Origin: a virus
Taxonomy: Duplodnaviria; Caudoviricetes
IMG/VR virus record: IMGVR_UViG_3300025773_000033
Coordinates: 1 to 27,321 of that record
Direction: 5' to 3' (one strand)
DNA length: 27,321 nt
Shown in pieces: positions 3,986 to 21,913 of this stretch. The notes under the pieces were generated by a model that had not been told where the DNA came from, searched no databases, and saw only the letters and a program-made list of their open reading frames with translations. The position numbers were made by a program, and so were the translations under genes. Within the stretch, counting starts at the first letter, position 1; each line of letters starts with the position of its first letter.

Positions 3986-6900
3986 ATGCCAAACCCTAAA
4001 GCAAACCAACAACCCCTAGATCTAGACAGAATCAAAGCCGATGCAATGAGCATGGGCATACCTGCTAGAGCGTTACTGGACATGATCTACTCTGGTGGAC
4101 GCAGTGCTATTGCCACCACAGCGGGATTGCCTGCTGATCTGGCTAACACAGCTATTGGTTTGCACAATATGGCGCACGACATTCGCCGTAACAAGTTTGA
4201 AGGATATCAGCCAGGATCTATATCTGGTGGCTCTGAGGATATCAAGGGATTGATCCCTGACCTAGCCAAAGACCCCAACTCAATGCTTAACAAGATGGCA
4301 AGCACAGCAGGTGACTTCGCTGTTATCCCAGGAGCGGGTACAGCCGCCACAAAGGGTGCAAAGATGCTTGGGCAGGAGATTGCTGATAGGGTTGCTACTG
4401 GTCAACGACTTATCCCTGGAGTTGGTGAGCCACAGATGGCTATGCACGTTATCAAGCCTGAGAAGGGTGGTAACTGGGTAAATAAGCAGGTTAACTCTGC
4501 TTTAGATAAATTAAAACAAGATACCTTATTAAAGAATAAAACTTATTATTACGGCCCAGAACACGATAAAGCTGTTGAAGAACGAATCAAAGAGCTAAAA
4601 GATATAGGTAGCGAAGGTGGATTGCGTGTCGTTAAACATCTAGAAGATAACAAAGATAAGTTTAAGAAGCTTGGCGCATTAAACCAATGGATTGATACCA
4701 ACCTCAAAAATTATGTTCGTAATGATATGGCCACACCTCATGACCCAATTCGCTTGGGCATTGAGGAACGAGTAGCCAAGGTTGAGGCCAACAACGCTAA
4801 AGAGCAAAAGAAGATAGCTAAGTTAGATGAGAAGATTGCTCAGGCCAAACAATCTGGTGATGAAGGTGCTGTAAGAACTATGCAGGCCGCCAGAGATAAT
4901 TTGGCAATTGAAGCTGAAGATGCTTATGAGTTGGGCATGAAGCATTCTGCTCATGTACCACATGAAAACTTTAGATTTGGAGATAACATCTCTAGATTTG
5001 AAGGTATGTCAACTACAAAGCCTTCAAATGCTTGGGAGTTTGTTTCTGACAATGCTTTAGATAGACTTAATAGCAATAGACTGAACGATCCATATGAACA
5101 GCATTACAAAACTATAAGTAAAGAACAGCCTGAGCTTTTGGGTCTTAAAGATAAAAATATTTATTCAGTATCTGATCCTCGTAACTTTGCTAACGATCTT
5201 GGCTTTGATCACGTTGTAGATACGATCAAACAGCATTTGGATTTGCCTGAAGGCGATAAGTATCATCTCAAGCCTGAGCAACTCAAGAACATAAGCGTTC
5301 CACAGATGATGGAACGTGTGGCTAACCAAAACTTAGAGAAAGATATTGCAAGTCGTAACGTAGCGTTACAACAGCAAGAAGGCTTTCCTGTTCTTAAAGA
5401 GTATCCATCTGGTCACAAGTGGATTGAGCTTAAGATGCCTGATCCCAAAATAGAAGAATCCCATGTTATGGGTCATCCTTCTGGTTATCCTGATCTTCAT
5501 GCAGTAATTGATTCGAAAACTGGTCAATCAGTATCTGTTGGCTCAACTCCCGAAGAAGCTGTTAATCTTTACAAAAGAGAAGAGCGTCAGAAACAACTTG
5601 AAGACGCATTGACATATGAAGGCGATAAGATGGGTCACTGTGTTGGTGGCTATTGTCCTGACGTATTGCAAGGCAACACAAGAATATTCTCATTAAGAGA
5701 TAAGCGTGGTGAGCCTCACGTAACAATTGAAGCTAGAAATCCAAAAATATATACTGAAGATGATGTGCTTGATCAATTCCCTGGTGGAGTAACAGATGCT
5801 CTTAAAAGAGGAGATATTGGCGCAAAAAAATATATAGCTTCAAAGCTTGAGGAGTTAAACGCAAACTCAAGAACACCAAACATTCATCAAATTAAAGGCA
5901 AAGGTAATGGAGCACCTGTAGATAAGTACTTGCCTATGGTGCAAGACTTCCAACGTACTACTGGATTTCCAATTAAAGGAGATATACAAAACTCTGGATT
6001 TGTTAATACTCAACCTGAGTTAAAAAAATTTGGAGAAAGTATTGGTTTAAAGGTGCCAGATTATTTAACTAAAGACGAAGAAAATGTTTTACGCCAACAA
6101 GTTGCTCCTCATGTTGAGTCAACGGTTAAAAACGCAAACAATTTTTTAGATACTCATCCTGCATTTGAACCTCATCGCCAAGCGAATGAAGTATTTAATA
6201 GTGCTCTTAATAATGGTATGTTTTTCAAAGATGAAGAACAATACTCTAAATTACGAAATGCTAGTAATCAACCGTTACATCCAGATATTCCTTATACATA
6301 TAATGAATTTAAATCAGTATTGAACAATCCAGAAGAACATGGTGAAGGTGATCCATTAAAAACTCAACTATATACTCTTGGAAAAATTGATGAACTGCGT
6401 AACAAAGTAGGAGATGTTCCTGCTGTAACCCCTCAAGAGACACAAGGCCTAGCTAAAGGCGGAAGAGTTAAGCGCAAGGTTCATGTTGCTAATGACTTGG
6501 ATATGATGCGCCATGAGATCCAGATGAAGGATAGCCCCAAAGGATTTGCAGGCGGTGGTGTTGTAGATAAGATGATTGGCAAGGGAATGGCTAGGCTATT
6601 CTCTGCTGTGGATAAGACTGCGGCTGAGTTGCCAAGAGCCAAGGGTACTGGCGCTGAATTCATGACAGAGCTTAGCAAGAAGCCTGGCGTTAAGAAGGCT
6701 GAATTGGCTGATAGAAACTTGGATGAGATCAAAGCATTACCCAAGATGACGAAGGATGAGTTCAAAGCTGAACTTGCCAAGCGTCCTGTGCCCCAAGTAA
6801 CTAAGAAGATACTGAGCGAAAATAACGCCGATAAATATTACATAGAACCAGTTGATCCAGATATGGCAAGGCCAAGAGATCCTCACTGGTTGTATGATGA

Positions 6901-9517
6901 GAATTGGCAAAAAGTTAATGAAGAGCCTTTCATGACAAGACATGATGCTCAATCATATGTCAATGATCTTAAAGAGACTGATAACAATATTCCAAGGTAT
7001 TCTTCTTATAAATTACCTGGTGGTGATAACTATCAGGAACATTTGTACCAGTTGTCCAACCATCCAGAGGAGTATGAAAGCTCACATTGGGAAGATATTC
7101 CAAACGTATTGGCTCATGCTCGTACTGTTGACCGCATGACTCCAGAAGGCAAGAAGATCCTCCACGTTGAGGAAATGCAGTCTGACTGGCATCAAGCAGG
7201 TAGGGATAAGGGATATCACGATCCAGAAAAACTGGCTCAAGCAGAAGCCACAATCAACGCATTGAAGGCAGAGCATAAGCGTCTTGGTGAAGTCAAAGCG
7301 TTAGCCAAAACTCCCGAAGAACGTGAAGCCATCAGCGAACAAAGATTGGCAATCATGGATCAGATTCGTGATGCCACCATCATGCCCTCTGACCATGTGC
7401 CTGATGCTCCATTCAAAAAGAACTGGGAAGAGATGGTTAGCAAGGACTTGGTCAAACACGCTGTTGACAATGGGTATGACGGCATAACATTGACTAATGG
7501 TGAAACGCAAGCGGATAGATATAACCTTGGCAAATACATAAACGAACTTCATTTGTCTGGTACTGATTTAGTTGGCTATGATCACAATGGAAATACGGTC
7601 ATAAAACAAACTGGTGTTACACCAAAAAATTTAAATCAATATGTTGGTAAGAAGGCGGCTAAAAAGTTATTAGATCAGCCACAACAAGGAACATTGCGGT
7701 CACTGACAGGTGAAGATTTGTATTTAGGCGAAGGCATGAAGGAGGCTTATGACAAGCGCCTACCAAATGTCTTCAACGACATTGGTAAGCCATACGGCGC
7801 TGAGATGAAGCTGAACGCTATGCCAGTACGTACGCCAAAAAACACTGACTTATCCATCACTGATATGCTTCAGCACACCAATACGCCTGAGCAAACATGG
7901 TTGGATATGCCTTTTGAGCAGAAAGAGAAGATGATGGATGACTTCGCTACTGCCCAAAACAATAAGACAACTCCTCTGCACTACATGGAGTTCACCCCAG
8001 AGATGAAGCAAGGAGTAGGAGAGAACAGTCTGCCTGCGTATGCTGATGGTGGACAAGTGGCTCAGCCAAGGCATGAGTCATTCTTAAACCCATCATTAAG
8101 ACTGGCTAATGGGCAGGTAACGCTTAATCCTTTGGAGTTCATGCCAAATTACCAAAGAGGTGGAAAAGTCCACGTAGCGGATGATTTGGAGATGATGAGA
8201 CACGAGATCCATATGTCTGAGGGTGGGGTAATGACTGATGCCGTCCTCAAGAAAATGGGCGATTTTATTAAGAAATCGTCTAAAGAATCTTTTTTGCCTT
8301 TAAATTTAAAAAGAGCAAAATCTCCAAATGATCAAGAGATGATGAAAATTGCAGAGCCTGTCATTAGACAAATGACTGGTGAGCACGTAGTACCTGAAGG
8401 ATCTACCAAGAAAGTTAATCTTGCAGGACGATCAATGAAGGAAAGTCAAAGGCTTAAGGATCTACCTTATTCTTTGACAACCAAAGAGCCTACAGGAAAA
8501 CCTGATATATATACACCAAAGATTGGAGATGTAAATATTGCTTTCCCTGGAGATCAAACTATATCTGACAGTATATTGCATAGTGTTGGAGATATAGAAG
8601 GGATAGATTCAGAGCAGGAAGGTGGTGCTAAATACGGATTGGGCAAGTTACATTTAAAATTGCCAAACTTTTGGGCTTCTGGTGAAGATCCCGCTCAAAG
8701 TGCTCAAGACAAAATAAATAGACTTGCAGGTTATTACGATCCTGATCGAGTAATTGCTCAACATTTAGCGATGGGTCCTACATCTAATAATTTTGCAATG
8801 CATTTAGCAGATGCAAATCTTCGTGCTACTGATTTTTCAAAAATGACTCCAGAGCAGATGTACAGCTTTGATAACATTATTGCCAATGGATTTGTAAAGA
8901 AAAATGCTAAGACTGGTGAATACGAGCATTTCAACTTTCCACACTGGCCTGGAATAGCTGACCCAGAAGGCGCTTACAAAGCCATGCAAAAAGATTCTGA
9001 ACTACGTAAATGGTATAACAGCAGGATGAAGACTCCTGAGATTACCAGTGCTCATGGATTACCAAATGGATTAGATATTCAATGGGCTATTACAGAACCT
9101 TCGCTTCGTAATATGCAAATTAACATGACGGGTTTGTCTGCGGGTGAGGTTGTGCCTGGCGCTGAATTAACGGATACTGCTGATCACAATACTTATGAAA
9201 AAGGCATCCGAGGTTTAGCATTACAACCAATAACTCCTCCCAAGCCAGTTCAAATAACTTTTCCAGACGCTACTCAGCATATTCTTGATACAAAACGTGC
9301 CCAAGACTTTACTGGAACTCTTCAAAAAGTATTTCCACATCAAGTTGTTGATGATCAATATTTAAATGACGTTGGCAGATATGATGCTTTGATCAAGAAG
9401 TACACGGGTCAGAAAAAGGGTGGCAAGGTTAAAGCTAAAAAGGCAAACAAAAAAGCCAAGGTTGAAATAACTAACAACATAAATATTATGCGTCACGAAT
9501 TAATCGATAGAGGATAA
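3986..9517 (+). CDS. large multidomain polyvalent-type protein (about 1840 aa), probably virion-internal, with a PcfJ-like domain and GG-motif linkers
   Basis: GAGGT RBS before ATG 3986. PcfJ-like motifs EGDKMGHCVGGY / IFSLRD / PHVTIE / QIKGKGN (~5618-5908). A second module common in large phage proteins: LPGGDNYQE / NVLAHAR / VEEMQSDWHQ / PDAPF / GYDGI (~7007-7500). Confidence 0.8.
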   Translation: MPNPKANQQPLDLDRIKADAMSMGIPARALLDMIYSGGRSAIATTAGLPADLANTAIGLHNMAHDIRRNKFEGYQPGSISGGSEDIKGLIPDLAKDPNSMLNKMASTAGDFAVIPGAGTAATKGAKMLGQEIADRVATGQRLIPGVGEPQMAMHVIKPEKGGNWVNKQVNSALDKLKQDTLLKNKTYYYGPEHDKAVEERIKELKDIGSEGGLRVVKHLEDNKDKFKKLGALNQWIDTNLKNYVRNDMATPHDPIRLGIEERVAKVEANNAKEQKKIAKLDEKIAQAKQSGDEGAVRTMQAARDNLAIEAEDAYELGMKHSAHVPHENFRFGDNISRFEGMSTTKPSNAWEFVSDNALDRLNSNRLNDPYEQHYKTISKEQPELLGLKDKNIYSVSDPRNFANDLGFDHVVDTIKQHLDLPEGDKYHLKPEQLKNISVPQMMERVANQNLEKDIASRNVALQQQEGFPVLKEYPSGHKWIELKMPDPKIEESHVMGHPSGYPDLHAVIDSKTGQSVSVGSTPEEAVNLYKREERQKQLEDALTYEGDKMGHCVGGYCPDVLQGNTRIFSLRDKRGEPHVTIEARNPKIYTEDDVLDQFPGGVTDALKRGDIGAKKYIASKLEELNANSRTPNIHQIKGKGNGAPVDKYLPMVQDFQRTTGFPIKGDIQNSGFVNTQPELKKFGESIGLKVPDYLTKDEENVLRQQVAPHVESTVKNANNFLDTHPAFEPHRQANEVFNSALNNGMFFKDEEQYSKLRNASNQPLHPDIPYTYNEFKSVLNNPEEHGEGDPLKTQLYTLGKIDELRNKVGDVPAVTPQETQGLAKGGRVKRKVHVANDLDMMRHEIQMKDSPKGFAGGGVVDKMIGKGMARLFSAVDKTAAELPRAKGTGAEFMTELSKKPGVKKAELADRNLDEIKALPKMTKDEFKAELAKRPVPQVTKKILSENNADKYYIEPVDPDMARPRDPHWLYDENWQKVNEEPFMTRHDAQSYVNDLKETDNNIPRYSSYKLPGGDNYQEHLYQLSNHPEEYESSHWEDIPNVLAHARTVDRMTPEGKKILHVEEMQSDWHQAGRDKGYHDPEKLAQAEATINALKAEHKRLGEVKALAKTPEEREAISEQRLAIMDQIRDATIMPSDHVPDAPFKKNWEEMVSKDLVKHAVDNGYDGITLTNGETQADRYNLGKYINELHLSGTDLVGYDHNGNTVIKQTGVTPKNLNQYVGKKAAKKLLDQPQQGTLRSLTGEDLYLGEGMKEAYDKRLPNVFNDIGKPYGAEMKLNAMPVRTPKNTDLSITDMLQHTNTPEQTWLDMPFEQKEKMMDDFATAQNNKTTPLHYMEFTPEMKQGVGENSLPAYADGGQVAQPRHESFLNPSLRLANGQVTLNPLEFMPNYQRGGKVHVADDLEMMRHEIHMSEGGVMTDAVLKKMGDFIKKSSKESFLPLNLKRAKSPNDQEMMKIAEPVIRQMTGEHVVPEGSTKKVNLAGRSMKESQRLKDLPYSLTTKEPTGKPDIYTPKIGDVNIAFPGDQTISDSILHSVGDIEGIDSEQEGGAKYGLGKLHLKLPNFWASGEDPAQSAQDKINRLAGYYDPDRVIAQHLAMGPTSNNFAMHLADANLRATDFSKMTPEQMYSFDNIIANGFVKKNAKTGEYEHFNFPHWPGIADPEGAYKAMQKDSELRKWYNSRMKTPEITSAHGLPNGLDIQWAITEPSLRNMQINMTGLSAGEVVPGAELTDTADHNTYEKGIRGLALQPITPPKPVQITFPDATQHILDTKRAQDFTGTLQKVFPHQVVDDQYLNDVGRYDALIKKYTGQKKGGKVKAKKANKKAKVEITNNINIMRHELIDRG

Positions 9518-9519
9518 AC

Positions 9520-12069
9520 ATGGCAACACAAATGCCCATTGAGCAGGACTACAACCGTCATATTGACGGAATGGAAATGATTGAGAATGAAGACGGCTCA
9601 GTCGATTTTGAGATGCCACCAGAGGATATGGAGCTTGAAGAGCTTCCTGATGGTTCTGTTATTGTTCACGATCCAGACTTCAAAGGCCCGACTGATGACA
9701 AAAAGTTCTACGCTAACTTGGCTGAAGAGTTTGATGTTAAGGGATTAGCCCTTGAATACATCAACCTGATTGAGAAGGATAAAGAAGCCCGTAAGATGCG
9801 GGATAAGCAGTATGAGGACGGTATTAAACGTACTGGTATGGGTAACGATAGCCCAGGTGGTGCGACCTTCTTTGGAGCTTCTAAAGTTGTTCACCCAGTG
9901 ATGGCTGAGTCTTGCGTAGACTTTGCGTCCAGAGCGATTAAAGAGATGTTCCCACCTGATGGCCCAGTCAGGACAAAGATATTGGGTGATGTTGATGATG
10001 TAAAGACCGAACGTGCTGAGCGCAAACGGGATTACATGAACTGGCAACTCACCGAGCAGATTGAGGAATTCCGTGATGAACAAGAGCAGTTGTTGACCCA
10101 ACTTCCTCTTGGGGGTTCCCAATACCTTAAGCTGTGGTATGACGAGCACAAGAAGCGCCCCTGCGTGGAGTTTCTGCCGATTGACCGTGTGATCGTACCC
10201 TTCGCCGCATCCAACTTCTATACCGCTCAGCGTGCAACTGAGGTTCACGAGATTACCGAGTGGGAAGTCAAGATGCGTATCAAGTCGGGTATGTACCGTG
10301 ACATTAGCATGATCCGTGCGACTATGGAGCCAGAGCCAACGGGTGCACAAAAGGCTAACGACAAGATTGAAGGTAAGAAGTGGCAAGACAACGAGGATGG
10401 TGTTAGACGTTTCTATCACACCTATGTTTGGCTAGAGATGGAAGATGACGAATATACCAAGGGCGAGATGGCACCTTATATTCTGATGATTGACACTTTA
10501 GACCATGAAGTTGTCGGGTTGTATCGTAACTGGGAAGACGGGGACGAAACCATGACCAAGCTAGACTGGGTTGTGGAGTTCAAGTTCATTCCTTGGAGGG
10601 GCGCATATGCAGTTGGTTTACCTCATCTTATTGGCGGTCTTAGTGCCGCCCTTACTGGCGCTCTTCGTGCTTTGCTCGATACTGCACATATCAACAACAG
10701 CGCTACTATGCTTAAGCTTAAAGGCGCTAAGGTTAGTGGTCAATCTCAGCAAGTTGAAGTTACCCAAGTTGCAGAAATTGAGGCAGGACCAGGAATCAAT
10801 GACATTAGGCAAATCGCTATGCCTATGCCTTTTAACCCTCCTAGCCCTGTACTATTTGAGTTATTGGGGTGGTTAGATCAGGCCGCCAAGGGCGTTGTAA
10901 CCACGGCTGAGGAGAAGATAGCTGACGTTACCGCTCAAGCGCCTGTAGGTACCACACAAGCCCTTATTGAGCAGGGATCTGCTGTGTTCTCAGCTATCCA
11001 CGCCAGACTTCATGACTCACAAGCCAGAGTGCTTAAGATTCTTGGTAGGCTGAACCGTTGGTACTTGGATGATCAGCGCAAGGGTGAGATTGTCAAGGAC
11101 TTGCAGATAACCAAGCAAGACTTTGAGCGCAACACAGATGTAGTTCCAGTCTCTGATCCACACATCTTCTCTGAAACGCAGAGGATGGCTCAGTCTCAGG
11201 CCGTAATGGCGCTGATGGATAAGTATCCTGCCCAGTTCAACCAGAAGGCTGTGCTTGAGAGATTCTTAAAGCAGATGAAGGTGCCTGGCATTAACGAGTT
11301 AATGGTTGATGCGGCTGAGCCACATAAGCACAATGTTGCAGAAGAGAACGTGGCTATGTCCTTGGGTCAGGGAGCGTTTGCTTATCCTGAGCAAGATCAG
11401 TTGGCTCACATCCAAGGGCACTTTGACTTTGTGATGAACCCATTGCTAGGACAGAACCCGATTATCGGACCGCAGTTGATTGGGCCAATGATTGAGCATT
11501 TGAGACAGCACATCACGCTCTTATACCTTGAGATGATGAAAAAGTACGCTACTCAAAGCGACAGAAAGCAGTCTATTCAGTACGAAAATGAAAAATACAC
11601 GGCTCAGATTGACCAGATATTTGCTATGGCATCACAGCACGTTGGTCACGATTTAGGTGAGAAGGTATTTGCACAGTTGGTACCAGACTTTCAGCATCTT
11701 ATCCAGATGCAACAGCAGTTTGCACCCAAGCCACAGCTTGATCCAGACGCACAAGCGCTCATCCAGACCTCAATGGCTGAGACACAGCGCAGAACCGAGC
11801 GTGATAAGCAAGAGATGGCACTCAAGGGTCAGCAGATCCAGGCTGATACACAGCTTGAGCAGGCCAAGATTACTAGCGAACAACAAAGAGAGCAGGCACA
11901 AAGGGAGTTAGATATAGCTATCAACTCTACTGATAACCTGACAAAAGAGCGTATAGCTTCAGCGGAACTCACCCGAGACGCCGCTAAGCTTCAGCAAGAG
12001 CAGTATGACACTGCAATTTCGCTTCAAAACGAAGCACAACGACACTTAGGAGGTCAACATGGCGAGTGA
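9520..12069 (+). CDS. portal protein
   Basis: 849 aa; HPVMAESCVDFASRAIKEMFPPDGPVRTKILG and DYMNWQL...LPLGGS motifs of large podovirus-type portals; long Gln-rich coiled-coil C-terminus; head-module position. Confidence 0.9.
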   Translation: MATQMPIEQDYNRHIDGMEMIENEDGSVDFEMPPEDMELEELPDGSVIVHDPDFKGPTDDKKFYANLAEEFDVKGLALEYINLIEKDKEARKMRDKQYEDGIKRTGMGNDSPGGATFFGASKVVHPVMAESCVDFASRAIKEMFPPDGPVRTKILGDVDDVKTERAERKRDYMNWQLTEQIEEFRDEQEQLLTQLPLGGSQYLKLWYDEHKKRPCVEFLPIDRVIVPFAASNFYTAQRATEVHEITEWEVKMRIKSGMYRDISMIRATMEPEPTGAQKANDKIEGKKWQDNEDGVRRFYHTYVWLEMEDDEYTKGEMAPYILMIDTLDHEVVGLYRNWEDGDETMTKLDWVVEFKFIPWRGAYAVGLPHLIGGLSAALTGALRALLDTAHINNSATMLKLKGAKVSGQSQQVEVTQVAEIEAGPGINDIRQIAMPMPFNPPSPVLFELLGWLDQAAKGVVTTAEEKIADVTAQAPVGTTQALIEQGSAVFSAIHARLHDSQARVLKILGRLNRWYLDDQRKGEIVKDLQITKQDFERNTDVVPVSDPHIFSETQRMAQSQAVMALMDKYPAQFNQKAVLERFLKQMKVPGINELMVDAAEPHKHNVAEENVAMSLGQGAFAYPEQDQLAHIQGHFDFVMNPLLGQNPIIGPQLIGPMIEHLRQHITLLYLEMMKKYATQSDRKQSIQYENEKYTAQIDQIFAMASQHVGHDLGEKVFAQLVPDFQHLIQMQQQFAPKPQLDPDAQALIQTSMAETQRRTERDKQEMALKGQQIQADTQLEQAKITSEQQREQAQRELDIAINSTDNLTKERIASAELTRDAAKLQQEQYDTAISLQNEAQRHLGGQHGE

Positions 12070-12208
12070 TGCAGAGCAAAAGGGTATTAACGTGCCCATG
12101 CATAAGAGATTAGCCCAGGGCGAGAAGCTTGATGGGACAAGTTTGGGTTCTAAAGGCGAAAGCCAGAAGAAACAAAGTGGCCTAGCTCACACAAGTAAGA
12201 AAAAATGA
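12059..12208 (+). CDS. small basic hypothetical protein (49 aa)
   Basis: Read by hand: MASDAEQKGINVPMHKRLAQGEKLDGTSLGSKGESQKKQSGLAHTSKKK. Strong AGGAGG RBS; fills the gap after the portal; ATGA-coupled to the next gene. Confidence 0.75.
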   Translation: MASDAEQKGINVPMHKRLAQGEKLDGTSLGSKGESQKKQSGLAHTSKKK

Positions 12209-12393
12209 GCGGGTTTGTCGGAGATCTGATCAGTAAAGTGAAGGAAATGCAGGGCGATATCGGGCTATCTCTAGCAGGTGGCTCCGCTATGAACTGGGAA
12301 TCCTATCAACGCATGGTCGGGATAAACATTGGACTGCAAAAAGTCTTGGATTTGATAGAACAACAACTAGAAGAGGAAGAAAAAGATGAGTGA
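12205..12393 (+). CDS. conserved small helical protein preceding GroES (62 aa)
   Basis: L..G...WESYQRMVG...GL helical-hairpin pattern; coupled on both sides. Confidence 0.8.
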   Translation: MSGFVGDLISKVKEMQGDIGLSLAGGSAMNWESYQRMVGINIGLQKVLDLIEQQLEEEEKDE

Positions 12394-12799
12394 TACAGAC
12401 TTGGCATGGGCTTTTCCTGCTGTAGAAGCAGGTGTAGAGCCTTTGGGAGCACGAGTACTTGTTCAACTAAAGAGAACGAAGAAGAAAATGACCGCATCTG
12501 GCATTATTCTCGCCGAGGAAACTCGTGAGAACGAAAAATGGCAGAACATGGTCGCAAAAGTCATTGAGATTGGCCCGTTGGCCTACCGTAACCGTGACAC
12601 GATGGAGGCTTGGCCTGAAGGTTCATGGGTAAAGGTGGGTGATTACATCCGTGTCCCTAAATGGGGTGGGGATAGATGGGAAGTTGCAGTGCCTGGGGAA
12701 GATCACGTTGAAGATAAGGCCATGTTTATGGTTCTTAACGACCACGAGGTTATCTCTAGGGTTAAAGGAGATCCGTTAGCAATGGCGGAATATGTGTAA
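12386..12799 (+). CDS. groES: GroES-like co-chaperonin (Cpn10)
   Basis: VEPLGARVLVQ, mobile loop TASGIIL, VIEIGP, VKVGD and VLNDHEVI match the Cpn10 pattern. Confidence 0.92.
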   Translation: MSDTDLAWAFPAVEAGVEPLGARVLVQLKRTKKKMTASGIILAEETRENEKWQNMVAKVIEIGPLAYRNRDTMEAWPEGSWVKVGDYIRVPKWGGDRWEVAVPGEDHVEDKAMFMVLNDHEVISRVKGDPLAMAEYV

Positions 12800-12832: not shown

Positions 12833-13798
12833 ATGAGTGAAGTAGCAGAAAGCAAAGAAGAAGACTTAAAAGTCAAAGAAGAGATGGACGGTTCAGCAGT
12901 GGTTGACCTTCCAGATGACATCAAAAGCCCCGATGCAAGCGAAAGTGAAGCAGAAGGTGGAAGTGTCAAGGCAGAATCCTCAACAGAGGACAACGATCAT
13001 CCTGATGACTCCGATGAGGTACGTCAAGAGAAGATCAACCGTAGGAAACTACGCCGTCAAAGAGCGAAGCAAGATCATGCCGAGAAGGATATCAAGCTTC
13101 AGCAACTAGAAAGAGTTAACCGTGAGTTAATGGAACGACTCTCTAATGTTGAAAGACGCACACATGGCGCAGAATTAGCGAGGGTTGACAAGGCTATAGA
13201 GGACGCTGAGCTTCAGTTCCAATATGCCAAGCTCAAGCTTCAAGAGGCTACTCAAGCGGGTGATGGCGAGGCTTTGGTTAAAGCGCAAGAGATGTGGTAC
13301 GAGTCTAGACAGAAGATCGAATCACTGAAAAACGTGAAAACTCAGGCGGTTAAGCCAAACAATGACCGTAGCCTGCCCGATCCACAGATACAGCGCAACG
13401 CCGCAGAGTGGATGAAACGTAATGACTGGTATAGCCCAGATAGCGGTGACGAGGATACTGAGATTGCAAAGATTATTGACAAACGACTGATCGAAGAGGG
13501 TTGGGACCCAAAGAATCCTGCCTACTGGGATGAGTTAGATAATCGCTTGCAAAGACGTCTCCCGCACAGATACAATGACAGCACAGACGATGAACCTGTA
13601 GTTAGACAACGACCTAGGAATGTTGTGACGAGTTCAGGACGTGAATCATCAGCGGCAAGTGCAGGCCGTAACACCTTCACACTCAACCCCGAACAGGTGA
13701 GAGCAATGAAGGACGCAGGATTCTGGGATGACCCCCAGAAGAGAGCAAAGATGATAAAGCGTTATGCAATGGAAGCACGTTCACAAAGGAGTAATTAA
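12833..13798 (+). CDS. capsid scaffolding protein (probable)
   Basis: Acidic disordered N-terminus, long coiled coil, C-terminal helix-turn-helix (LNPEQVRAMKDAG...MIKRYA); lies between portal and MCP. Confidence 0.75.
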   Translation: MSEVAESKEEDLKVKEEMDGSAVVDLPDDIKSPDASESEAEGGSVKAESSTEDNDHPDDSDEVRQEKINRRKLRRQRAKQDHAEKDIKLQQLERVNRELMERLSNVERRTHGAELARVDKAIEDAELQFQYAKLKLQEATQAGDGEALVKAQEMWYESRQKIESLKNVKTQAVKPNNDRSLPDPQIQRNAAEWMKRNDWYSPDSGDEDTEIAKIIDKRLIEEGWDPKNPAYWDELDNRLQRRLPHRYNDSTDDEPVVRQRPRNVVTSSGRESSAASAGRNTFTLNPEQVRAMKDAGFWDDPQKRAKMIKRYAMEARSQRSN

Positions 13799-13800
13799 TT

Positions 13801-14340
13801 ATGGAATCACGTTTAAAAAAATCTTTGAATGCAGGCGGTAGACAGAATCGTGCTCAGCAAGATGAATCCCGCAAGGCACCAGAAGAGAAGTTCGTCTCAG
13901 CACAGGAACGCCGAAAGATGTGGAGTGATGAGTGGACACAAAGAGCATTGCCAGATGTCCCTGAAATCCCTGGTTGGCACGTGTGTTGGTTATCAACTAC
14001 TAACTCATATGACAGCATTGACAAGCGGATTCGTCTTGGATACGTCCCAGTGAAAACTGAGGAAGTACCACAATACGAAAGCCACAAAGTCAAATCAGGT
14101 GAACACGTTGGATATGTGTCTTGCAACGAAATGTTACTGTACAAGATCCCTATGGATGTGTATCAGGAAGTAATGCAACACTTCCACCATGATATGCCTC
14201 TTGAGGAAGCGAACAAAATTCGCATCCAAGCGGAGCAAACAATGGGTCGAGACAGTAATGGCAAGTCACTTGGAAGACTAGAAGGTGAAGGTATTGGCAA
14301 AATTGATGAACCACTTCCCGCACCCGTATTTTCTGGGTAG
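13801..14340 (+). CDS. conserved head-module protein of unknown function (179 aa)
   Basis: AAGGAG RBS; PGWHVCWLS...RIRLGYVPV...EMLLYKIP pattern seen between scaffold and capsid genes in this phage type. Confidence 0.75.
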   Translation: MESRLKKSLNAGGRQNRAQQDESRKAPEEKFVSAQERRKMWSDEWTQRALPDVPEIPGWHVCWLSTTNSYDSIDKRIRLGYVPVKTEEVPQYESHKVKSGEHVGYVSCNEMLLYKIPMDVYQEVMQHFHHDMPLEEANKIRIQAEQTMGRDSNGKSLGRLEGEGIGKIDEPLPAPVFSG

Positions 14341-14365
14341 GTGAAGTAACTAAGGAGTTTTGCAT

Positions 14366-14947
14366 ATGTCAGCATTATTGCAACCCTTCGGTTTACGCCC
14401 TGCGTTCCATCCATCAGGTTTGGATCGTGCTCAGGCGTTAGCAGGAGGAATCACTTCTGGATACTCTTCAAACATTTTGAAGGGTCAGCCAGTTAAATAC
14501 TCTGCGTCAGCAGGTGTAATCGTCCCCGTATCAACTACAGAAGCGTTTTCTGGCGCATTTGCAGGTTGCGAGTGGACAGACTCAACAGGTCGCCGCCGTG
14601 TTAGTAACTACTGGCCTGCCAGTACTACATACATCACTGGATCTTGCATTGCTTATTTCTACAACGATAACAACATCGTTTATGAAATCCAAGCAGACGG
14701 ATCTATGGCTCAAACCAGTATCGGTAATGAGTACAACTTCAGCAATATAACCAATGGTTCTACTACCACAGGTCTGTCACAAGCGACACTAGGCGCTTCT
14801 ACAGCAGTAGGTAATAGTTCACAAGGTCAAATGCGTGTTGTTGATCTTTCGCCCGTTCCAGGCAATGCTTGGGGCGATACATACACTATCGTTCGTGTTG
14901 TTGTATCAGCATCTCAGATGTTCGGTAGCTTCACTGCGTTCGCTTAA
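14366..14947 (+). CDS. probable capsid decoration / minor head protein (193 aa)
   Basis: TAAGGAG RBS before ATG 14366; beta-rich, small-residue composition (PFGLRP...GAFAGCEW...IVYEIQADG); immediately upstream of MCP. Confidence 0.65.
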   Translation: MSALLQPFGLRPAFHPSGLDRAQALAGGITSGYSSNILKGQPVKYSASAGVIVPVSTTEAFSGAFAGCEWTDSTGRRRVSNYWPASTTYITGSCIAYFYNDNNIVYEIQADGSMAQTSIGNEYNFSNITNGSTTTGLSQATLGASTAVGNSSQGQMRVVDLSPVPGNAWGDTYTIVRVVVSASQMFGSFTAFA

Positions 14948-14957
14948 GGAGTAAATT

Positions 14958-15872
14958 ATGGCCGCACCAATGCGAAGTACGGACTTTAGAAGTATTGTCG
15001 AACCTATCCTTAACGAATGTTTTGATGGCGTTTACGATCTCCGTGAAGACGAATGGTCACGTGTTTTCCGTGAACAAGAAGGTATTCCACGTAACTACCA
15101 TGAAGAGCCAGTTCTTTATGGATTTGGAGCCGCACCTCAACTGCCTGATGGAACACCAGTGTCCTATCAGCAAGGTGGTGTACTCTTCCTCCAACGCTAT
15201 ATCTACTCAGTGTATGGGCTTGCCTTTGCATTGACTAAAGTGTTGGTAGAAGACGGCGACCATATCCGTATTGGACAAGTTTACGCTCGTCACTTAGCTC
15301 AGTCTTTGATTGAGACAAAAGAGACACTAGCCGCAAACGTGCTCAATAACGCTTTCAACTCCAACTATGTTGGTGGTGATGGTGTATCTTTAATCAGCGC
15401 ATCACACCCAATCGTGAACGGCACTTTCTCTAACCAGTTGTCTACTGCGGCAGTTTTGTCACAGACTTCTTTAGAGCAAATGTTGATTCAGATTCGTAAT
15501 GCTGTTGACAACAATCAGAAGAAAATTCGCTTGGTTCCACGCCAATTGGTCGTGGCTCCTGGTAACATTTTCCAAGCTGAAGTGTTGCTCAAATCAGTAT
15601 TGCGTACAGGTACTGCCAACAACGACATCAACCCCGTTAAGTCTATTGGCTTATTGGATGAGGGTGCCGCTGTTCTGTCACGTTTGACTTCATCTACCGC
15701 ATGGTGGGTACAGACAGACGCACCAGAAGGCATGAAGCTGTTGATGCGTAGACGTTTAGAGAAGACTATGGAAGGTGACTTCGAGACTGACTCTATGCGC
15801 TATAAAGCAACTGAGCGTTATGCAATAGGATGGACAGATCCTAGAGCGCTCTTCGGTACACCTGGCGTGTAA
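14958..15872 (+). CDS. major capsid protein (HK97 fold, Mu gpT-like type)
   Basis: 304 aa; strong TAAGGAG RBS; motifs DGVSLISASHP, IRLVPRQLVV, AWWVQTD, EGDFETDSMRYKATERY..GWTDPR; followed by a terminator. Confidence 0.9.
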   Translation: MAAPMRSTDFRSIVEPILNECFDGVYDLREDEWSRVFREQEGIPRNYHEEPVLYGFGAAPQLPDGTPVSYQQGGVLFLQRYIYSVYGLAFALTKVLVEDGDHIRIGQVYARHLAQSLIETKETLAANVLNNAFNSNYVGGDGVSLISASHPIVNGTFSNQLSTAAVLSQTSLEQMLIQIRNAVDNNQKKIRLVPRQLVVAPGNIFQAEVLLKSVLRTGTANNDINPVKSIGLLDEGAAVLSRLTSSTAWWVQTDAPEGMKLLMRRRLEKTMEGDFETDSMRYKATERYAIGWTDPRALFGTPGV

Positions 15873-15879
15873 TCCATCT

Positions 15880-15908
15880 GGGGAGGGAGTCAAATCTCTC
15901 CCCTTTTT
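15880..15908 (+). terminator. intrinsic terminator after MCP
   Basis: GGGGAGGGA-gtcaaa-TCTCTCCCC followed by TTTTT. Confidence 0.85.
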
Positions 15909-15945
15909 CAAATTCTTATGAGCTTCATGGCTAAAGGAACAAAAA

Positions 15946-17271
15946 ATGCCTCAATTTTCAGATGACCTATTCTTAGGTAGTGCCCAATCAAATGCGGGTA
16001 CAAACGTAAACAGCAATTTGGGTGATCCATCACCAATGTCCTTGGGTTTTGGCCCAATGGGTCGTGTTTTTCTTTATGACACAACTGCTTCAGTTGGAAC
16101 AACTGCGGCTGTTTTAGCGGCTGTTACACCTACTACAGCAACGACTTATAGTGGAACTTCACTTGCGGCGGCATCAGCATCTGCGGGTACAACTCGTGTT
16201 GTTCGTGGTGACGGTACGACTGTTGTTCAGTTCGACTATCCAAGAGCAGTAGCAATTACTACTGGTTCTTTTACTGCCGCTACTTTTGTAACGGCTAACA
16301 TTGCCACTGCCGCATCTGGCGCAGGTGGTACAACTGGTTCTTTCGTTGTTTCAACAACTCCTCTCGTTGGATTGGCAGTTGGTCAAACAGTGACTGTAAC
16401 TGGAACTAACTCTGGTACTTCTGGACTTGCGGCAGGTACATACCTGATCTCTGCAACGAACGGTACTACAACATTTACACTGACCACAACTACTGGTGGC
16501 GTTGTAACTACTACTGCGGCAGGATCAAACACTGGTTTGACTTTCACTAACTCCATTACTGCTGTATCAGCAACTGTGTCTGGATACGATTACTACGGTC
16601 AGCCAATGACTGAGATCATCCTAAATAGCACATCATCTGCTACTCAAGTAGTTGGACGTAAAGCCTTCTTCCAGGTTTACTCTGTTACTTTTGGAGCCGC
16701 ATCTGGTATTGCAATGTCAGCAGACACATCTAATGTGTTAGGCTTACCTGCTCGTATCTCTGATGCGTCATACATCATAAGCAATAGATTCAGTGGTTCA
16801 TTATCAAATGACTCTGGAACTTTGGCTTTGGGTTACTACTCCAACACAACAACTTATGCTACACAAGCTGTAACTGGTTGGACAATCGCTTCTCCTGGCG
16901 TATTAACAGTTGGTTATTCACCTGCAAGCGGATCAATCGTTCAGTTCACAGGTACACCTCCAACTGGCGTTAGCACAGGTACTAACTACTGGTGGACATA
17001 CGTTTCTGGTACGACTGGTAAGATTTCAACAAGCCAAGCCAACTATTTGGCAGGTGTGTTTGTAAATACTTCTGGTTCATACACAGCAAGCGCTTCCAGT
17101 ATGGTTCCTCAGTTCACTTCGACTTCTGTAACTCCTGATGTACGTGGTACATATACACCTGGTGGTACATTAAACGGATTGGCAAGACTGGTGCTTACAC
17201 TCGGTTTGACAGCAATCCAAGTTGGCCCTAATGCTACGGCAACAGGTCTGCTCGGTATCACCCAAGCTTAA
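15946..17271 (+). CDS. Thr/Ser/Gly-rich virion structural protein (head fibre or decoration-like, 441 aa)
   Basis: Beta-strand-rich composition; TVSGYDYYGQPMTE and DVRGTYTP motifs; position after MCP. Confidence 0.7.
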   Translation: MPQFSDDLFLGSAQSNAGTNVNSNLGDPSPMSLGFGPMGRVFLYDTTASVGTTAAVLAAVTPTTATTYSGTSLAAASASAGTTRVVRGDGTTVVQFDYPRAVAITTGSFTAATFVTANIATAASGAGGTTGSFVVSTTPLVGLAVGQTVTVTGTNSGTSGLAAGTYLISATNGTTTFTLTTTTGGVVTTTAAGSNTGLTFTNSITAVSATVSGYDYYGQPMTEIILNSTSSATQVVGRKAFFQVYSVTFGAASGIAMSADTSNVLGLPARISDASYIISNRFSGSLSNDSGTLALGYYSNTTTYATQAVTGWTIASPGVLTVGYSPASGSIVQFTGTPPTGVSTGTNYWWTYVSGTTGKISTSQANYLAGVFVNTSGSYTASASSMVPQFTSTSVTPDVRGTYTPGGTLNGLARLVLTLGLTAIQVGPNATATGLLGITQA

Positions 17272-17283
17272 GGAGACTAAATT

Positions 17284-18690
17284 ATGGCTAAAGCAACAAA
17301 AGGGGCAGGCGGTTTCAGCCAAATGCCAAAGATGATCACCGATGAGCCTTCAGTTATTCTGAAGCTCAAAAAAGGTGGATCTGCTACTCATAAAAAGGGT
17401 GGAAAGCACGAAGAGCATGGTCATAAGACTATGCACAAAGCTATGGGCGGAATGATGGACGGTGCAACCACTCTGCCTGCTCGTGGTGGAATGGCTCCTG
17501 CTATGGCTCCTAAGATGGGTGCTCTTGCGGCTCGTAGGGCGGCGATGAAGGGTATGCCAACTCCTTTGATGAAGAAGGGCGGAAAAGCTGAAGGCGGTAA
17601 AGAGCACAAAGCTGAAATGCATGAGATCAAAAAAGTTGAAAAAGAACTTAAGCATCACGAGCATGAAAAGGCAGGAAAGGCTCATCATGGTCTGAAAAAA
17701 GGCGGTCACGCTAAGAAGCATTTTGCTAAAGGTGGCTCAGCAATGGGCAAAGGGATCGACAAGTTTGAGACTAAGACTACTGACGAAAAAGCACCTAAAA
17801 AGTTCTTAGAAACCGAAATGCATGACGGTGAGCACCATGATTCAGTGCATGGCACTGGCATGGTTAAGGAAGGAAATGCAGGTGGTTTCAAGCATGGTGG
17901 TAAAGTTCATAAGATTTCTGGTCATCCAGAGGGTTCTCATGAGCACCACAAGGCTATGTGCAAAGGCGGTAAGTACGCTATTGGTGGCACTGTTTCCGAC
18001 AATGTTGCTAAGAAGTTTGAAAACACAATGATGGTTGATGGCGAACACCATGATTCAGTACACGGTACTGGCGAGGTAAAAGAGTCAAACGCAGGTGGAT
18101 TTAAACACGGCGGAAAAGCTCATCACAAGCATGGTGGCAAACACCACTACGCTAAGGGTGGCAATGTTGCTCCTGACCTTAACCTGAAAGACACTGTTGA
18201 AGGTGGTGACTGGGAAAACCGTCCTGCTGACACAACTAAGCCTGGTGTGCGTATGCAGACTACTGGTGCTGTCAAGGAAGGTAATGCAGGTGGCTTTAAG
18301 CACGGAGGCAAGGCTTCAAAAAAGCACTTCGCCACGGGGGGCGCTGTTAATAAACAGGGTTCTGCTGTGGCTATGCCTCAAGGTAAAAAGCCTGCATCTC
18401 CACCAGTTGCGATAACTCGCTTGTCTGGCACCTTCAAAAAGGGTGGACAAGTAAAGCATCATGCGGATGGGGGAGCTATATCTGATTATGATCGAAGGAT
18501 GATGGAATTTGCTCCTGGTCAAAATATGAGAGATGTATCTCCACAAGACGTTGCTGATGCTAAGCAAAGGGCTAGAGATTCCGCTTCTTACGCTGAAGCT
18601 TCAAGGATTACTCCAAGAAGTGCAGGCGCAGGAAGAGGTTTTGTAAATCCTGAAATGGTTAGAAAGCACGGCGGTAGAGCCAAGAAGTAA
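17284..18690 (+). CDS. His/Lys/Gly-rich low-complexity protein with tandem xxxGG motifs (468 aa)
   Basis: Strong TAAGGAG RBS; 24 Gly-Gly dipeptides by hand count; internal repeats; followed by a stable hairpin. Confidence 0.85.
   Translation: MAKATKGAGGFSQMPKMITDEPSVILKLKKGGSATHKKGGKHEEHGHKTMHKAMGGMMDGATTLPARGGMAPAMAPKMGALAARRAAMKGMPTPLMKKGGKAEGGKEHKAEMHEIKKVEKELKHHEHEKAGKAHHGLKKGGHAKKHFAKGGSAMGKGIDKFETKTTDEKAPKKFLETEMHDGEHHDSVHGTGMVKEGNAGGFKHGGKVHKISGHPEGSHEHHKAMCKGGKYAIGGTVSDNVAKKFENTMMVDGEHHDSVHGTGEVKESNAGGFKHGGKAHHKHGGKHHYAKGGNVAPDLNLKDTVEGGDWENRPADTTKPGVRMQTTGAVKEGNAGGFKHGGKASKKHFATGGAVNKQGSAVAMPQGKKPASPPVAITRLSGTFKKGGQVKHHADGGAISDYDRRMMEFAPGQNMRDVSPQDVADAKQRARDSASYAEASRITPRSAGAGRGFVNPEMVRKHGGRAKK
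17797..18312 (+). repeat. internal protein-level repeats
   Basis: KKF...DGEHHDSVHGTGxVKExNAGGFKHGGK occurs twice (~17797-17904, ~18010-18117), with a third partial copy TGAVKEGNAGGFKHGGK (~18262-18312). Codons differ at synonymous positions. Confidence 0.9.
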
Positions 18691-18695
18691 AAATC

Positions 18696-18717
18696 GGTGG
18701 GGGCTTCGGCTCCCACC
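18696..18717 (+). terminator. stable cUUCGg hairpin (weak terminator or mRNA-stabilising element)
   Basis: GGTGGGGGC-TTCG-GCTCCCACC, with no clean U-tract after it. Confidence 0.6.
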
Positions 18718-18734
18718 ACTCTAATAGGTGAAAT

Positions 18735-21401
18735 ATGTCTGAAATCTCAGTCTATACAGGTCCGTCATCCAATTCCGATAATCAATTAAGAATTCAGCAG
18801 GCACAGCGTTCTACTGCGTATGATCCAGTAGACAAGATGCGTGTTTCAACACCGCAGTCCTTGATTGATACTGACTTTGAATATGGTCAGCAAGGTACGA
18901 AGTGGGAACAAACCTCGATGCAAAACAACCGCGCATCGTTGTATTACTTAGGTAATGCCACATTACCAGTATCAGCTATTGCGGGTAATCAGTCCACAAC
19001 AAATCAGTTGGTCATAACAATGACCTCCTCAAACGTGCCAAACGGCTCTCCAATCTTCATTGAAGATGCAATTGACCCTAACGCTAATGGTTGGGGTTGG
19101 GTGGCTTCTGGAGGCGGTTCTACAGCCACTTCTATTACTGTAAACATGGCTCAGGCAATTACAACAGCAACATGTTGGTCGGCTACTTCTACTTATGTTT
19201 ACCTCGGTTATTTGTATAGCGGATATGGATTTAACTTAACTGGAACAACAGCATTCACTTTTACTGGATCAACAGTTAGTTGTACAACTACTTATCCACA
19301 TGGATTGTCAGCGGGTTCTTTGATTTATATCACTGGAACAACTGGTCCAAGCACAGCAACGACGATAAATGGTCCTCAGATTGTGGTTACAACGCCTATA
19401 GCAACGACATTTACGTTCACCAATATTAACGGCACACCTTCTACGACAATCGCTAATACAGCGGGTGCAAGCAATCTGTATGCACGTCCTGCGGGATATG
19501 TGGATACTCACGCTTATGATGGATCTGTCAATTTTACGGTTGGCGCATCCATACCCAATCAGGTTTTACAACGTCAAACCCGTAGATATTTCCGTTACCA
19601 GTCTGGTAAAGGAATTCAATTTTCTACTGGAACAATTCTTAAGCCACAGCTTCAGCAACCAGTACTGACATCTTCCAGTGCAACAGTTACTGTTACGACT
19701 AAGTTTCCGCACAATTTAACTGTAAACACAGTTATTGTTGTGACTGGCGCTGATCAAAGTGCTTATAACGGTACTTTTGTTGTTAAAACAGTACCCACTG
19801 CATTAACTTTCACTTATACAACGCTGAATAACATTGTTCCTTCAGCAACGCCTGCGACTTCCACAGGTGGATTTATTCACGTAAGTCCATATTCCTGGTA
19901 CGGCGCAAGCAATAAGATTGGATTCTTTGACCAACAAAATGGTCTTTTCTTCCAATACGACGGTCAAACACTGTATGCGGTTTATCGTAACTCAATCAAC
20001 CAAATCGTAGGTACAGTATCTGTAACCAACGGTAGCGGCGCTGTAACTGGATCAAGCACTCAGTTTACAACTCAATTGGTTGTGGGTGATTACATTGTTA
20101 TTCGTGGTCAATCTTACAGAGTTTTGAGCATTGCAAGCGATACAAGCATGTATATCAGCCCTGAGTACCGTGGAACTACGATTGCTAATGCAATTGTTTC
20201 ACGCACTATTGACCAAAAAGTACCGCAGTCACAGTGGTATGACGTGTTGGATGGTTCTAATTCAGCCTCCAATCCTTCTGGATACAACCTTGACCTCACC
20301 AAAGTACAGATGTTCTACATTGACTACTCTTGGTACGGCGCGGGTGTGGCTCGATTTGGTATTCGCACCACTGGTGGAACGATTACTTATATCTACAATT
20401 TCCAAAACAACAACGTAAACTACACTGCTTACATGAGATCTGGTAACTTGCCATCTCATTATGAGCAAAATGGTGTATTGCCTATTACCAATATTACATC
20501 TAGCGTTGGAGTTAGTGATACAACTATTAACGTGATTAGCACCGCAGGATTTAACCCCGCAGGTAGTACAGCCAGATTTATTGGTAGCGGAACTTCTGGT
20601 GTGATTGAGTACTTCACATACACTGGAATTACAAGCGCGGCTAATTCTTCCACAGGTTATCCACAGTTGACTGGTTTAACTCGCGGTACTACTGGTGGTT
20701 CATCTGCTACAGCATTCACATACTCTGCAACTGCTCCCGTAGCTGTTGAGTATGCGGCTCCTGATGCGGCGGCGATGTTGTCTCACTGGGGTTCTTCAGT
20801 GGTGATGGATGGTGGATTCAACCAAGACGTATCCGCTATTTACAACTATGGTATGTTGACCGCTTTGACTAGCCCTAACAGCACAGCAAACGTGCCAATT
20901 ATGGCTATTCGCTTGGCTCCATCCGTGGATAACGGCACAGTTGGATTGCTTGGTGTTAAAGAAGTTATCAACCGTCTACAGTTGCAGTTGAATGAGATTG
21001 CTGTTGTGACCAACACGACCTATCTAATTCAATTGGTGCTCAACGGTATACCTTCTGGAGCATTCTCTGGATCGTTTGTATCTCCCGTTCAAGGCGGTAC
21101 AAATACCAGTTCACTCGTTCAGATTGCTGTTAATACAACCAATACCGTTACTATTTCAGGTGGTGAGTCAATTGCGGCTTTCTATACCAATAGCTCAGGT
21201 CAAACTGGTTATCCTTTGGCATCTATCTCTGCGATTGGTAACTCTGCCAACGGTGGCGGTACATCTAACAGTGTTCCAACATCTCAATCGGGTCAGTACC
21301 CAGATGGTCCAGACATTTTGTACATTGTTGCTACAACGCTCAATGCGGGTGCTTCTAACACCGTCGTAGCTCGTCTCAACTGGCAAGAGTCACAAGCATA
21401 A
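18735..21401 (+). CDS. large virion structural protein (888 aa) with repeated small beta domains
   Basis: RVSTPQSLIDTDFEY, RQTRRYFRYQSGKG, IGFFDQQNGLFF and IDYSWYGAG motifs; repeats HGLSAGSLIYITG / HNLTVNTVIVVTG...TFTY. Confidence 0.75.
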   Translation: MSEISVYTGPSSNSDNQLRIQQAQRSTAYDPVDKMRVSTPQSLIDTDFEYGQQGTKWEQTSMQNNRASLYYLGNATLPVSAIAGNQSTTNQLVITMTSSNVPNGSPIFIEDAIDPNANGWGWVASGGGSTATSITVNMAQAITTATCWSATSTYVYLGYLYSGYGFNLTGTTAFTFTGSTVSCTTTYPHGLSAGSLIYITGTTGPSTATTINGPQIVVTTPIATTFTFTNINGTPSTTIANTAGASNLYARPAGYVDTHAYDGSVNFTVGASIPNQVLQRQTRRYFRYQSGKGIQFSTGTILKPQLQQPVLTSSSATVTVTTKFPHNLTVNTVIVVTGADQSAYNGTFVVKTVPTALTFTYTTLNNIVPSATPATSTGGFIHVSPYSWYGASNKIGFFDQQNGLFFQYDGQTLYAVYRNSINQIVGTVSVTNGSGAVTGSSTQFTTQLVVGDYIVIRGQSYRVLSIASDTSMYISPEYRGTTIANAIVSRTIDQKVPQSQWYDVLDGSNSASNPSGYNLDLTKVQMFYIDYSWYGAGVARFGIRTTGGTITYIYNFQNNNVNYTAYMRSGNLPSHYEQNGVLPITNITSSVGVSDTTINVISTAGFNPAGSTARFIGSGTSGVIEYFTYTGITSAANSSTGYPQLTGLTRGTTGGSSATAFTYSATAPVAVEYAAPDAAAMLSHWGSSVVMDGGFNQDVSAIYNYGMLTALTSPNSTANVPIMAIRLAPSVDNGTVGLLGVKEVINRLQLQLNEIAVVTNTTYLIQLVLNGIPSGAFSGSFVSPVQGGTNTSSLVQIAVNTTNTVTISGGESIAAFYTNSSGQTGYPLASISAIGNSANGGGTSNSVPTSQSGQYPDGPDILYIVATTLNAGASNTVVARLNWQESQA

Positions 21402-21910
21402 TGCCAAGCAAATCACCTGCTCAACATAGGCTGATGGAAGCCGCCGCCCACACAAAAGGTGGGTATGGTGGTGTTCCTCAAAAAGTTGGTAAAGAATTTG
21501 TAAATTCTGACAAAATGAAAAAAGGTGGACTATATGAAAATATTCATGCAAAGCAAGAACGTATTGCTCACGGCTCTAAAGAACATATGCGTAAGCCTGG
21601 TAGCAAAGGTGCGCCAACTGCTGAAGCGTTCAGAGAGTCCGCCAAAACAGTAAAGAAAAAAGAAGGTGGAGTAAGTCTGGCGGTGGGTAGGGGAGAAAAA
21701 TTATCTGTATCTAAGGGCGCAGGGCTTACGGAAAAAGGTAGGGCTAAGTACAATAGAGAGACTGGATCTCACTTAAAAGCTCCTCAACCTCAAGGTGGTG
21801 CTAGAAAAGATTCATTTTGTGCTCGTATGAGCGGAGTAGTTGAACACTCAAAAGGAGATGCGCCAAGAGCCAAGGCATCACTTAAGAGATGGCATTGCCC
21901 AGGATGGTAA
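21401..21910 (+). CDS. basic tripartite hypothetical protein with a C-terminal DUF6321-like module (169 aa)
   Basis: TAATG coupling; C-terminal GLTEKGRAKYN...LKAP...RKDSFCARMSG...SLKRWHC pattern; modules separated by MKKGG and KKEGG. Confidence 0.75.
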   Translation: MPSKSPAQHRLMEAAAHTKGGYGGVPQKVGKEFVNSDKMKKGGLYENIHAKQERIAHGSKEHMRKPGSKGAPTAEAFRESAKTVKKKEGGVSLAVGRGEKLSVSKGAGLTEKGRAKYNRETGSHLKAPQPQGGARKDSFCARMSGVVEHSKGDAPRAKASLKRWHCPGW

Positions 21911-21913
21911 AAA

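Follow-up and report, generated by a model that had tools for sequence, protein, structure and literature searches.

We present here a short double-glycine motif in the late proteins of a freshwater bacterial virus, found in a 27,321-nucleotide stretch of DNA that covers the whole of IMG/VR record IMGVR_UViG_3300025773_000033 (hereafter the window) and holds a tailed-phage morphogenesis module. In its clade-wide form, [Y/M/F/L/K]-[K/A]-x-G-G-x-[V/A/I], the motif is carried by three families of cargo proteins, represented in the window by proteins of 1847, 468, and 169 amino acids (aa), by the N-terminal linker of the scaffold, and by the first ejection protein. By analogy with a cut mapped in phage T5, it may well be a signal at which the proteins are cut, at P1|[A/K]-x-G-G-x-V, as the prohead matures, and a small domain on the ejection protein is the best candidate for the protease or reader of the motif. 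A first-pass annotation of this DNA had described a three-protein system, serving either as a maturation signal or as a docking tag. The system is wider, taking in the scaffold as well as an ejection protein whose gene lies beyond the window, and maturation is the better supported of the two functions.

Motif and protein families

The pattern used in that annotation, [FYLMH][AK]xGGx[VA] (the strict pattern), matches the 468-aa protein 11 times against 0.11 expected (about 100-fold) and the 1847-aa protein three times against 0.05 expected (about 60-fold), with p = 0.0005 for both (2000 shuffles, whole-protein and 30-aa-window), values that are circular because the pattern was derived from these same proteins. 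It has no match in the other 21 window proteins, the 169-aa protein included, where a relaxed pattern gives one match (p about 0.1). All of the peptides first quoted are found in the genes named for them, and glycine codons vary between sites, as had been reported; three of the six sites quoted from the large protein (YQRGG, MSEGG, and QKKGG), however, do not fit the pattern as written.

Because the strict pattern came from window proteins, a scoring matrix was trained on relatives (722 sites in 76 related loci, L005-L080), and it is from these related sequences that independent support for the motif comes. The matrix consensus is Y/M/F/K/L at P1, then K/A, x, G, G, x, and V/A/I. In the window it scores 5 sites in the 1847-aa protein, 17 in the 468-aa protein, 2 in the 169-aa protein, and none in the other 20 proteins; the claimed recurrence in three proteins holds for the first two under the strict pattern and for the third under the matrix. 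A clade outside the training set has 223 matrix sites per 227,014 aa, against 6 per 285,741 aa in another clade, and loci with at least two sites number 56/80 in the untrained DSL-LC04-like clade versus 0/80 in the CRP-901-like clade.

Scanned family by family at a score of at least 10, dereplicated members carry the motif in 51/51, 28/29, and 28/28 cases in the three cargo families (107/108 together, a partly circular count, since these families belonged to the training set) and in 12/47 scaffolds; there are no matches in portal (0/38), major capsid protein (MCP; 0/4), TerL (0/19), GroES (0/35), or the tail, adaptor, and fibre families. The scan of this and related proteomes thus finds the motif enriched in cargo families and, as described below, at module boundaries. 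The MCP sequence Y-Q-Q-G-G-V fits a loose pattern (80 matches in 82 MCPs) and has a matrix score below 8; it was treated as a coincidence.

The motif had been said to be absent from TerL, MCP, and scaffold, which holds for TerL and MCP and fails for the scaffold. There, [AK]xGGx[VAI] occurs within the acidic first 90 residues of 19/43 homologs and nowhere else in the protein (shuffles: mean 0.23, maximum 3 in 2000), the pattern having been chosen after the scaffold homologs were inspected. In the window scaffold, A-E-G-G-S-V at residues 40 to 45 scores below the matrix threshold. The motif is found in both basic and acidic contexts, the acidic one being the scaffold, and charge is therefore not the explanation.

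Module boundaries

The motif sits at module seams. The 1847-aa protein consists of three large modules and short linkers, with six motif sites between them (Table 1). Its homology blocks, at residues of about 14 to 815 (ending at ~702 to 815), 858 to 1372, and 1381 to 1834, have sites beside them at 829/861, 1359, 1396/1417, and 1816, and cutting at the sites is predicted to give modules of 826, 498, and 399 aa. Across 50 dereplicated large proteins, 860/1575 internal alignment ends lie at most 25 aa from a site, against a rotation null with a mean of 254 (maximum 391 of 1000), as expected from the domain boundaries first proposed; these ends are mutually dependent, and a shared motif can itself set an alignment end.

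Cut in the same way, the 468-aa protein would yield 19 pieces of 5 to 67 aa, 14 of them net basic, and the 169-aa protein pieces of 39, 47, and 83 aa. The last piece is at most 30 aa long in 80/115 DSL-like proteins. Many small proteins of DSL-LC04, HTVC023P, and Pag-Yong1 end in the motif and a short basic, Gly-containing tail (L116 7313-7918, L083 7718-8323, and L118 21313-22501).

Position of the predicted cut

The motif is likely a cut mark because the T5 tape-measure protein pb2 is cut just before a matching motif. That cut falls after R1127 (PMC10038345), where the sequence reads P-R1127|A-E-G-G-M-M, two residues before GG. The computed mass of residues 1128 to 1219, 9701.7, matches that of a tail fragment measured intact without trypsin (9702; PMC11937500), which supports a cut at R1127|A-E-G-G. 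By this analogy, the cut in the present proteins likely lies before A/K and not after GG, and we consider it rather probable that this is the position used.

In crAss001, about eight such A-x-G-G sites, among them those at A207, A261, A330, A425, and A560, lie between the small modules of the cargo protein C1, gp45 (PF25725), which also has a K-x-x-G-G-K site near its C terminus. The portal-bound domain seen by cryo-electron microscopy spans residues 425 to 552 (PMC10172136) and begins with the A of an A-F-G-G; the next site follows at 560, and an A-x-G-G-like start precedes the portal-bound domain in the crAss homologs examined. The other resolved piece of gp45, residues 214 to 245, lies about 420 Å away in the tail, and the four stretches detected by mass spectrometry and named in the text of PMC10172136 span no site. 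An endonuclease gene in crAss phage cr112_1, possibly an intron, splits the gp45 homolog a little before the point where the A-F-G-G domain begins (L201 997-1572).

Lambda gpH has two scored sites, at A734 (GG at 736) and 779 (GG at 781), which flank a domain homologous to the candidate reader described below. It is processed to gpH* and gpHC, with site and catalyst stated to be unknown in PMC12617516. T5 and crAss are motif-level precedents only, because homology to that domain was not detected in them.

Candidate reader domain

The genome G001 (59,076 bp), which is nearly identical to the window, was used as a stand-in for genes beyond it. Its first ejection-region protein (437 aa), assigned an ejection role from its position before phrog_2534, ends in a small domain of two repeats, each preceded by an x-E-G-G site. 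The domain consensus is A-x-G-G...G-x-G-T-G-x-S-D-D-I-x-A-x-L-x-D-G-E-Y-V; [AK]xGG lies at most 45 aa upstream in 112/120 homologs, and a Glu in the second repeat is kept in 118/120. The domain is carried by open frames whose lengths range from 343 to 1676 aa (G034-G042 and G005) and therefore appears mobile between ejection genes. It is homologous to the C-terminal region of lambda gpH (hhalign E = 1.2e-4; reversed controls negative) and to the tape measures of Douge and JBD30 (E = 1.7e-16 and 7e-4). The crAss C1 domain gives an atlas lead of 0.84 to the reader domain, with no Pfam match and a negative hhalign result. A fold search with the AF2 model of the two-repeat form (mean pLDDT 78) returned 0 of 48,161 chains at Z of at least 5 (best Z, 3.4); among the 36 fold matches listed there is no protease and no crAss C1 chain, a result that is evidence neither of a new fold nor of a difference.

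Domain and motif occur together. Among 37 long contigs, all 14 with the domain have 2 to 21 sites near the MCP gene, and the 23 without it have no site (19 contigs), one site (3), or two (1). Genomes covered for the most part or in part have 35, 25, 24, 18, 14, 10, 7, 2, 2, and 0 sites where the domain is present and 0, 0, 0, 1, and 1 where it is absent (shuffled means, 0.2 to 1.9). On the MCP tree there are two domain-bearing clades, with a nested clade and an outer clade that each lack both domain and motif, and 4/5 motif-bearing loci of the outer search set lie in a domain-bearing clade. CRP-901/902 lack both and keep a 179-aa orphan gene found in the window. F116, in which the domain was found by tblastn and missed in the scan based on open reading frames (ORFs), was excluded from these counts.

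Known proteases were not found by Pfam or PHROGs in the 23 window and 44 G001 proteins, nor was a C5/C39/C48-type match by Pfam in the same set, which leaves room for remote folds. No HExxH zincin is present in 91 G001 late-strand ORFs. A prohead protease likewise has no Pfam or PHROGs match, the MCP matches to phrog_133 and 4523 covering the C-terminal capsid part. The proteases that the first-pass annotation proposed to look for (Ulp1/C48, C39, and prohead types) thus gave no match among the proteins searched.

In the maturation scheme that we favor, motif-bearing cargo would be packaged in the head, and the small motif-headed domain of the ejection protein would bind the P' side first, so that the motif recruits cargo. 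The cut would then probably be made by that domain inside the prohead, just before A/K. Sites at C termini could on this view be understood as recruitment tags that would be removed after the P' side has been bound. Cutting would set effector modules free, trim the scaffold, and release short basic peptides whose role would be to neutralise the DNA packaged in the head. Taken as a claim of its own, that the small domain is the catalyst is a tentative proposal, and it is a guess that its Glu/Asp residues carry out catalysis. Broader still, and in our view unlikely, would be a single ~60-aa domain headed by P1|A-x-G-G that is a new virion peptidase, self-excising from the tape measures of lambda, T5, and mycobacteriophages and from crAss C1, and in this podophage clade acting in trans as a prohead protease that recruits scaffold proteins, polyvalent effectors, and peptide chains that condense DNA and cuts them into pieces. 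Such a peptidase would also account for the cutting of lambda gpH.

Alternative explanations

Several points weigh against maturation cutting by this domain. Packaging and cutting are steps that we infer for this phage and clade, and the motif is rare or absent in the other ejection proteins (4/60, 0/53, and 0/48). An earlier study placed the T5 site at V1148±1, and trypsin itself can cut at R1127 (PMC11937520); T5 pb2 differs further in being a tail protein with one site and an Arg at P1. By hhalign, the reader domain showed no homology to T5 pb2C or crAss C1 (probability <2%; crAss, 0.3%). The covered sections of PMC10172136 treat gp45 as one continuous chain and make no mention of cleavage, and an ordered domain can begin at a conserved strand without a cut. 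A cut at lambda A734 would release 12.5 kDa, versus a published piece of ~14 kDa that the GG pairs at 709 to 721 fit better (13.8 to 14.6 kDa), and gpH acts in the tail, not the head. The JBD30 authors speculate that the cut comes after the domain and saw no peptidase motif (PMC11445458). In the co-occurrence data, 10/23 domain-negative contigs are less than 90% complete, the MCP tree reduces the association to about two independent changes, and Caulobacter phage RW is an exception, with the domain and no scored sites.

Some of these data would also suit a motif that is never cut and acts as a docking tag, binding the ejection-protein domain, portal, or scaffold and gathering cargo, with the 468-aa protein as a multivalent hub. 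The last site lies at most 12 aa from the C terminus in 53/229 and 23/115 proteins, where a cut would release no useful module (a further point against maturation that fits a tag), and 245/786 inter-site pieces are 12 aa or shorter. The motif-headed domain of crAss C1 is portal-bound, no known protease was found, and the co-occurrence also fits a receptor. We nevertheless regard a tag as a lesser possibility: T5 is cut at a matching motif, internal sites lie at module seams although a protein would need no more than one tag, and most ejection proteins need no tag. Less probable again is a structural turn, flexible linker, or by-product of module recombination without any reader protein. In ejection proteins and tape measures the motif does stand at the head of a folded domain, and short repeats spread readily in low-complexity proteins; against this, codons vary, unrelated proteins, both basic and acidic, share the motif, the CRP-901 clade has lost it as a set, and it is carried by 0/63 tail proteins though these are richer in Gly.

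The first-pass annotation had drawn on systems that cut after GG. Adenovirus protease, African swine fever virus (ASFV) pS273R, and C39 leader systems recognise a GG-containing short signal and cut after GG with a cysteine protease, and basic peptides are released in virions. The P side of the present motif resembles the adenovirus consensus, and the lambda piece, as said, fits a cut after GG at 709 to 721. That a cysteine protease or the 179-aa orphan cuts here in the manner of adenovirus, ASFV, or Ubl proteases nevertheless seems improbable, given the negative protease searches above and a mapped T5 cut that comes before the motif. C39 double-glycine motifs end a short N-terminal leader, whereas here the first site lies at most 10 aa from the start in only 2/229 and 2/115 proteins, most sites being internal or C-terminal. 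The orphan has 2212 homologs, lies between scaffold and capsid genes in all relatives viewed, as prohead proteases often do, and has invariant C62, S65, C108, H129, and H130 (120 homologs) as well as invariant D residues; searches gave no family, named homologs, or solved relatives. Its role as the protease is disfavoured, as CRP-901/902 keep the orphan yet have no sites, and the structure predicted for it, mostly helices, is of low quality (pLDDT 59.9).

Relation to known systems

In prohead-protease maturation of the T4 kind, the scaffold and the internal head proteins carry a single short motif that directs many cuts. Maturation by a prohead protease in phiKZ and SPN3US is the subject of PMC5694885, PMC10052503, and PMC7411985. 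Here too the scaffold and non-shell late proteins share one motif. Those systems, however, have a dedicated protease and cut shell proteins, whereas the searches made here gave no such protease, there are no sites in MCP or portal, and most conserved residues follow the predicted cut. Polyvalent proteins, for which packaging and processing have been proposed (Iyer et al. 2017; PMC5512222), are large phage proteins made of many shuffled modules, and the large protein here is likewise built of shuffled modules, with block-wise homology. Their processing is ascribed to zincin peptidases, with HExxH in about 36% of members, and the word "glycine" does not occur in the covered portion of PMC5512222; an embedded HExxH peptidase is absent from the late-strand ORFs searched. 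The predicted process would work like prohead-protease maturation combined with polyvalent processing, minus recognisable proteases.

The one mapped cut at a matching sequence is that of T5 pb2, with R1127|A-E-G-G and a short Gly/Glu-containing domain after it, a region that the T5 authors describe as a muralytic metallopeptidase motif (PMC10038345, PMC11937500, and PMC11937520). In crAss001 gp45, small basic modules and a portal-bound domain are split by AxGG sites, and the protein is not described as cut in the covered text (PMC10172136).

Genome context

The window encodes, in order, TerS, TerL, an acyl-carrier-like protein, the 1847-aa protein, portal, a GroES-like protein, the likely scaffold, the 179-aa orphan, a 195-aa protein, MCP, the 468- and 169-aa proteins, adaptor, and fibre proteins (Table 1). 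Its MCP is 79% identical to that of Caulobacter phage RW and ~40% identical to those of CRP-901, HTVC023P, DSL-LC04, and Pag-Yong1; DSL-LC04 and HTVC027P are relatives in culture. G001 is identical to the window over positions 1 to 15,858 and 89.7% identical over 14,722 to 24,142, and its 468-aa protein sequence is identical. The scaffold-to-MCP region is present at both ends of G001 (L085 1-2137; L087/L088), one copy 100% and the other ~93% identical to the window, and G001 is likely a mixed-strain assembly. Its second ejection-region protein (L086 13366-14478, minus strand) is unusually rich in cysteines, many and scattered. A GNAT-like gene in G001 and, in MW202545, a gene annotated as 3-oxoacyl-ACP synthase lie directly ahead of the ejection genes; with the acyl-carrier-like gene, they point to a possible acylation of virion proteins.

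Table 1. Coordinates of the features discussed, in window positions.
Feature	Position	Strand	Remarks
Acyl-carrier-like stand-alone gene	3718..3951	+	PF00550, E = 1.9e-7; between TerL and large protein
Pre-portal modular protein, 1847 aa	3974..9517	+	TTG start; ATG at 3986 gives 1843 aa
Module A, residues 1-826	3974..6451	+	PcfJ-like stretch 545-589, PF14284, E = 2e-6
L-A-K-G-G-R-V site	6449..6469	+	GG at 829; matrix score 17.8
F-A-G-G-G-V-V site	6545..6565	+	GG at 861; matrix score 16.5
Module B, residues 859-1356	6548..8041	+	Block common to many relatives; phrog_7348, E = 1.9e-12, on 1032-1200
Y-A-D-G-G-Q-V site	8039..8059	+	GG at 1359; matrix score 13.3
Y-Q-R-G-G-K-V weak site	8150..8170	+	GG at 1396; matrix score <8
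M-S-E-G-G-V-M site	8213..8233	+	GG at 1417; matrix score 10.5
Module C, residues 1415-1813	8216..9412	+	No family match
Q-K-K-G-G-K-V site	9410..9430	+	GG at 1816; matrix score 15.7; followed by 34-aa basic C-terminal piece
GroES-like co-chaperonin gene	12386..12799	+	PF00166; within head module, conserved across group
Likely scaffold, 321 aa	12833..13798	+	Assigned by position and coiled-coil-like sequence
Scaffold site E-A-E-G-G-S-V	12947..12967	+	GG at 42; acidic N-terminal linker
Conserved orphan, 179 aa	13801..14340	+	Between scaffold and capsid genes; protease role considered, disfavoured
Lys/His/Gly-rich protein, 468 aa	17284..18690	+	17 scored sites plus one at C terminus
169-aa protein	21401..21910	+	Three small basic modules, third is DUF6321; sites 21515-21535 and 21656-21676
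S74 domain	26121..27233		Tail-fibre chaperone

Implications

Short motifs at which virion proteins mature are already known; no description of this signal or of its candidate reader was found in the open-access literature searched. If the maturation reading is true, it gives a residue-level prediction for the lambda gpH cut site and catalyst left open in PMC12617516, and it offers an alternative reading of why parts of crAss001 gp45 are seen in both head and tail. It also allows the mature forms of many "hypothetical" proteins to be predicted in an abundant group of freshwater and marine phages, for which matching viral stretches are estimated at about 2000 and 3900, and it would explain how cargo modules are swapped freely in these phages.

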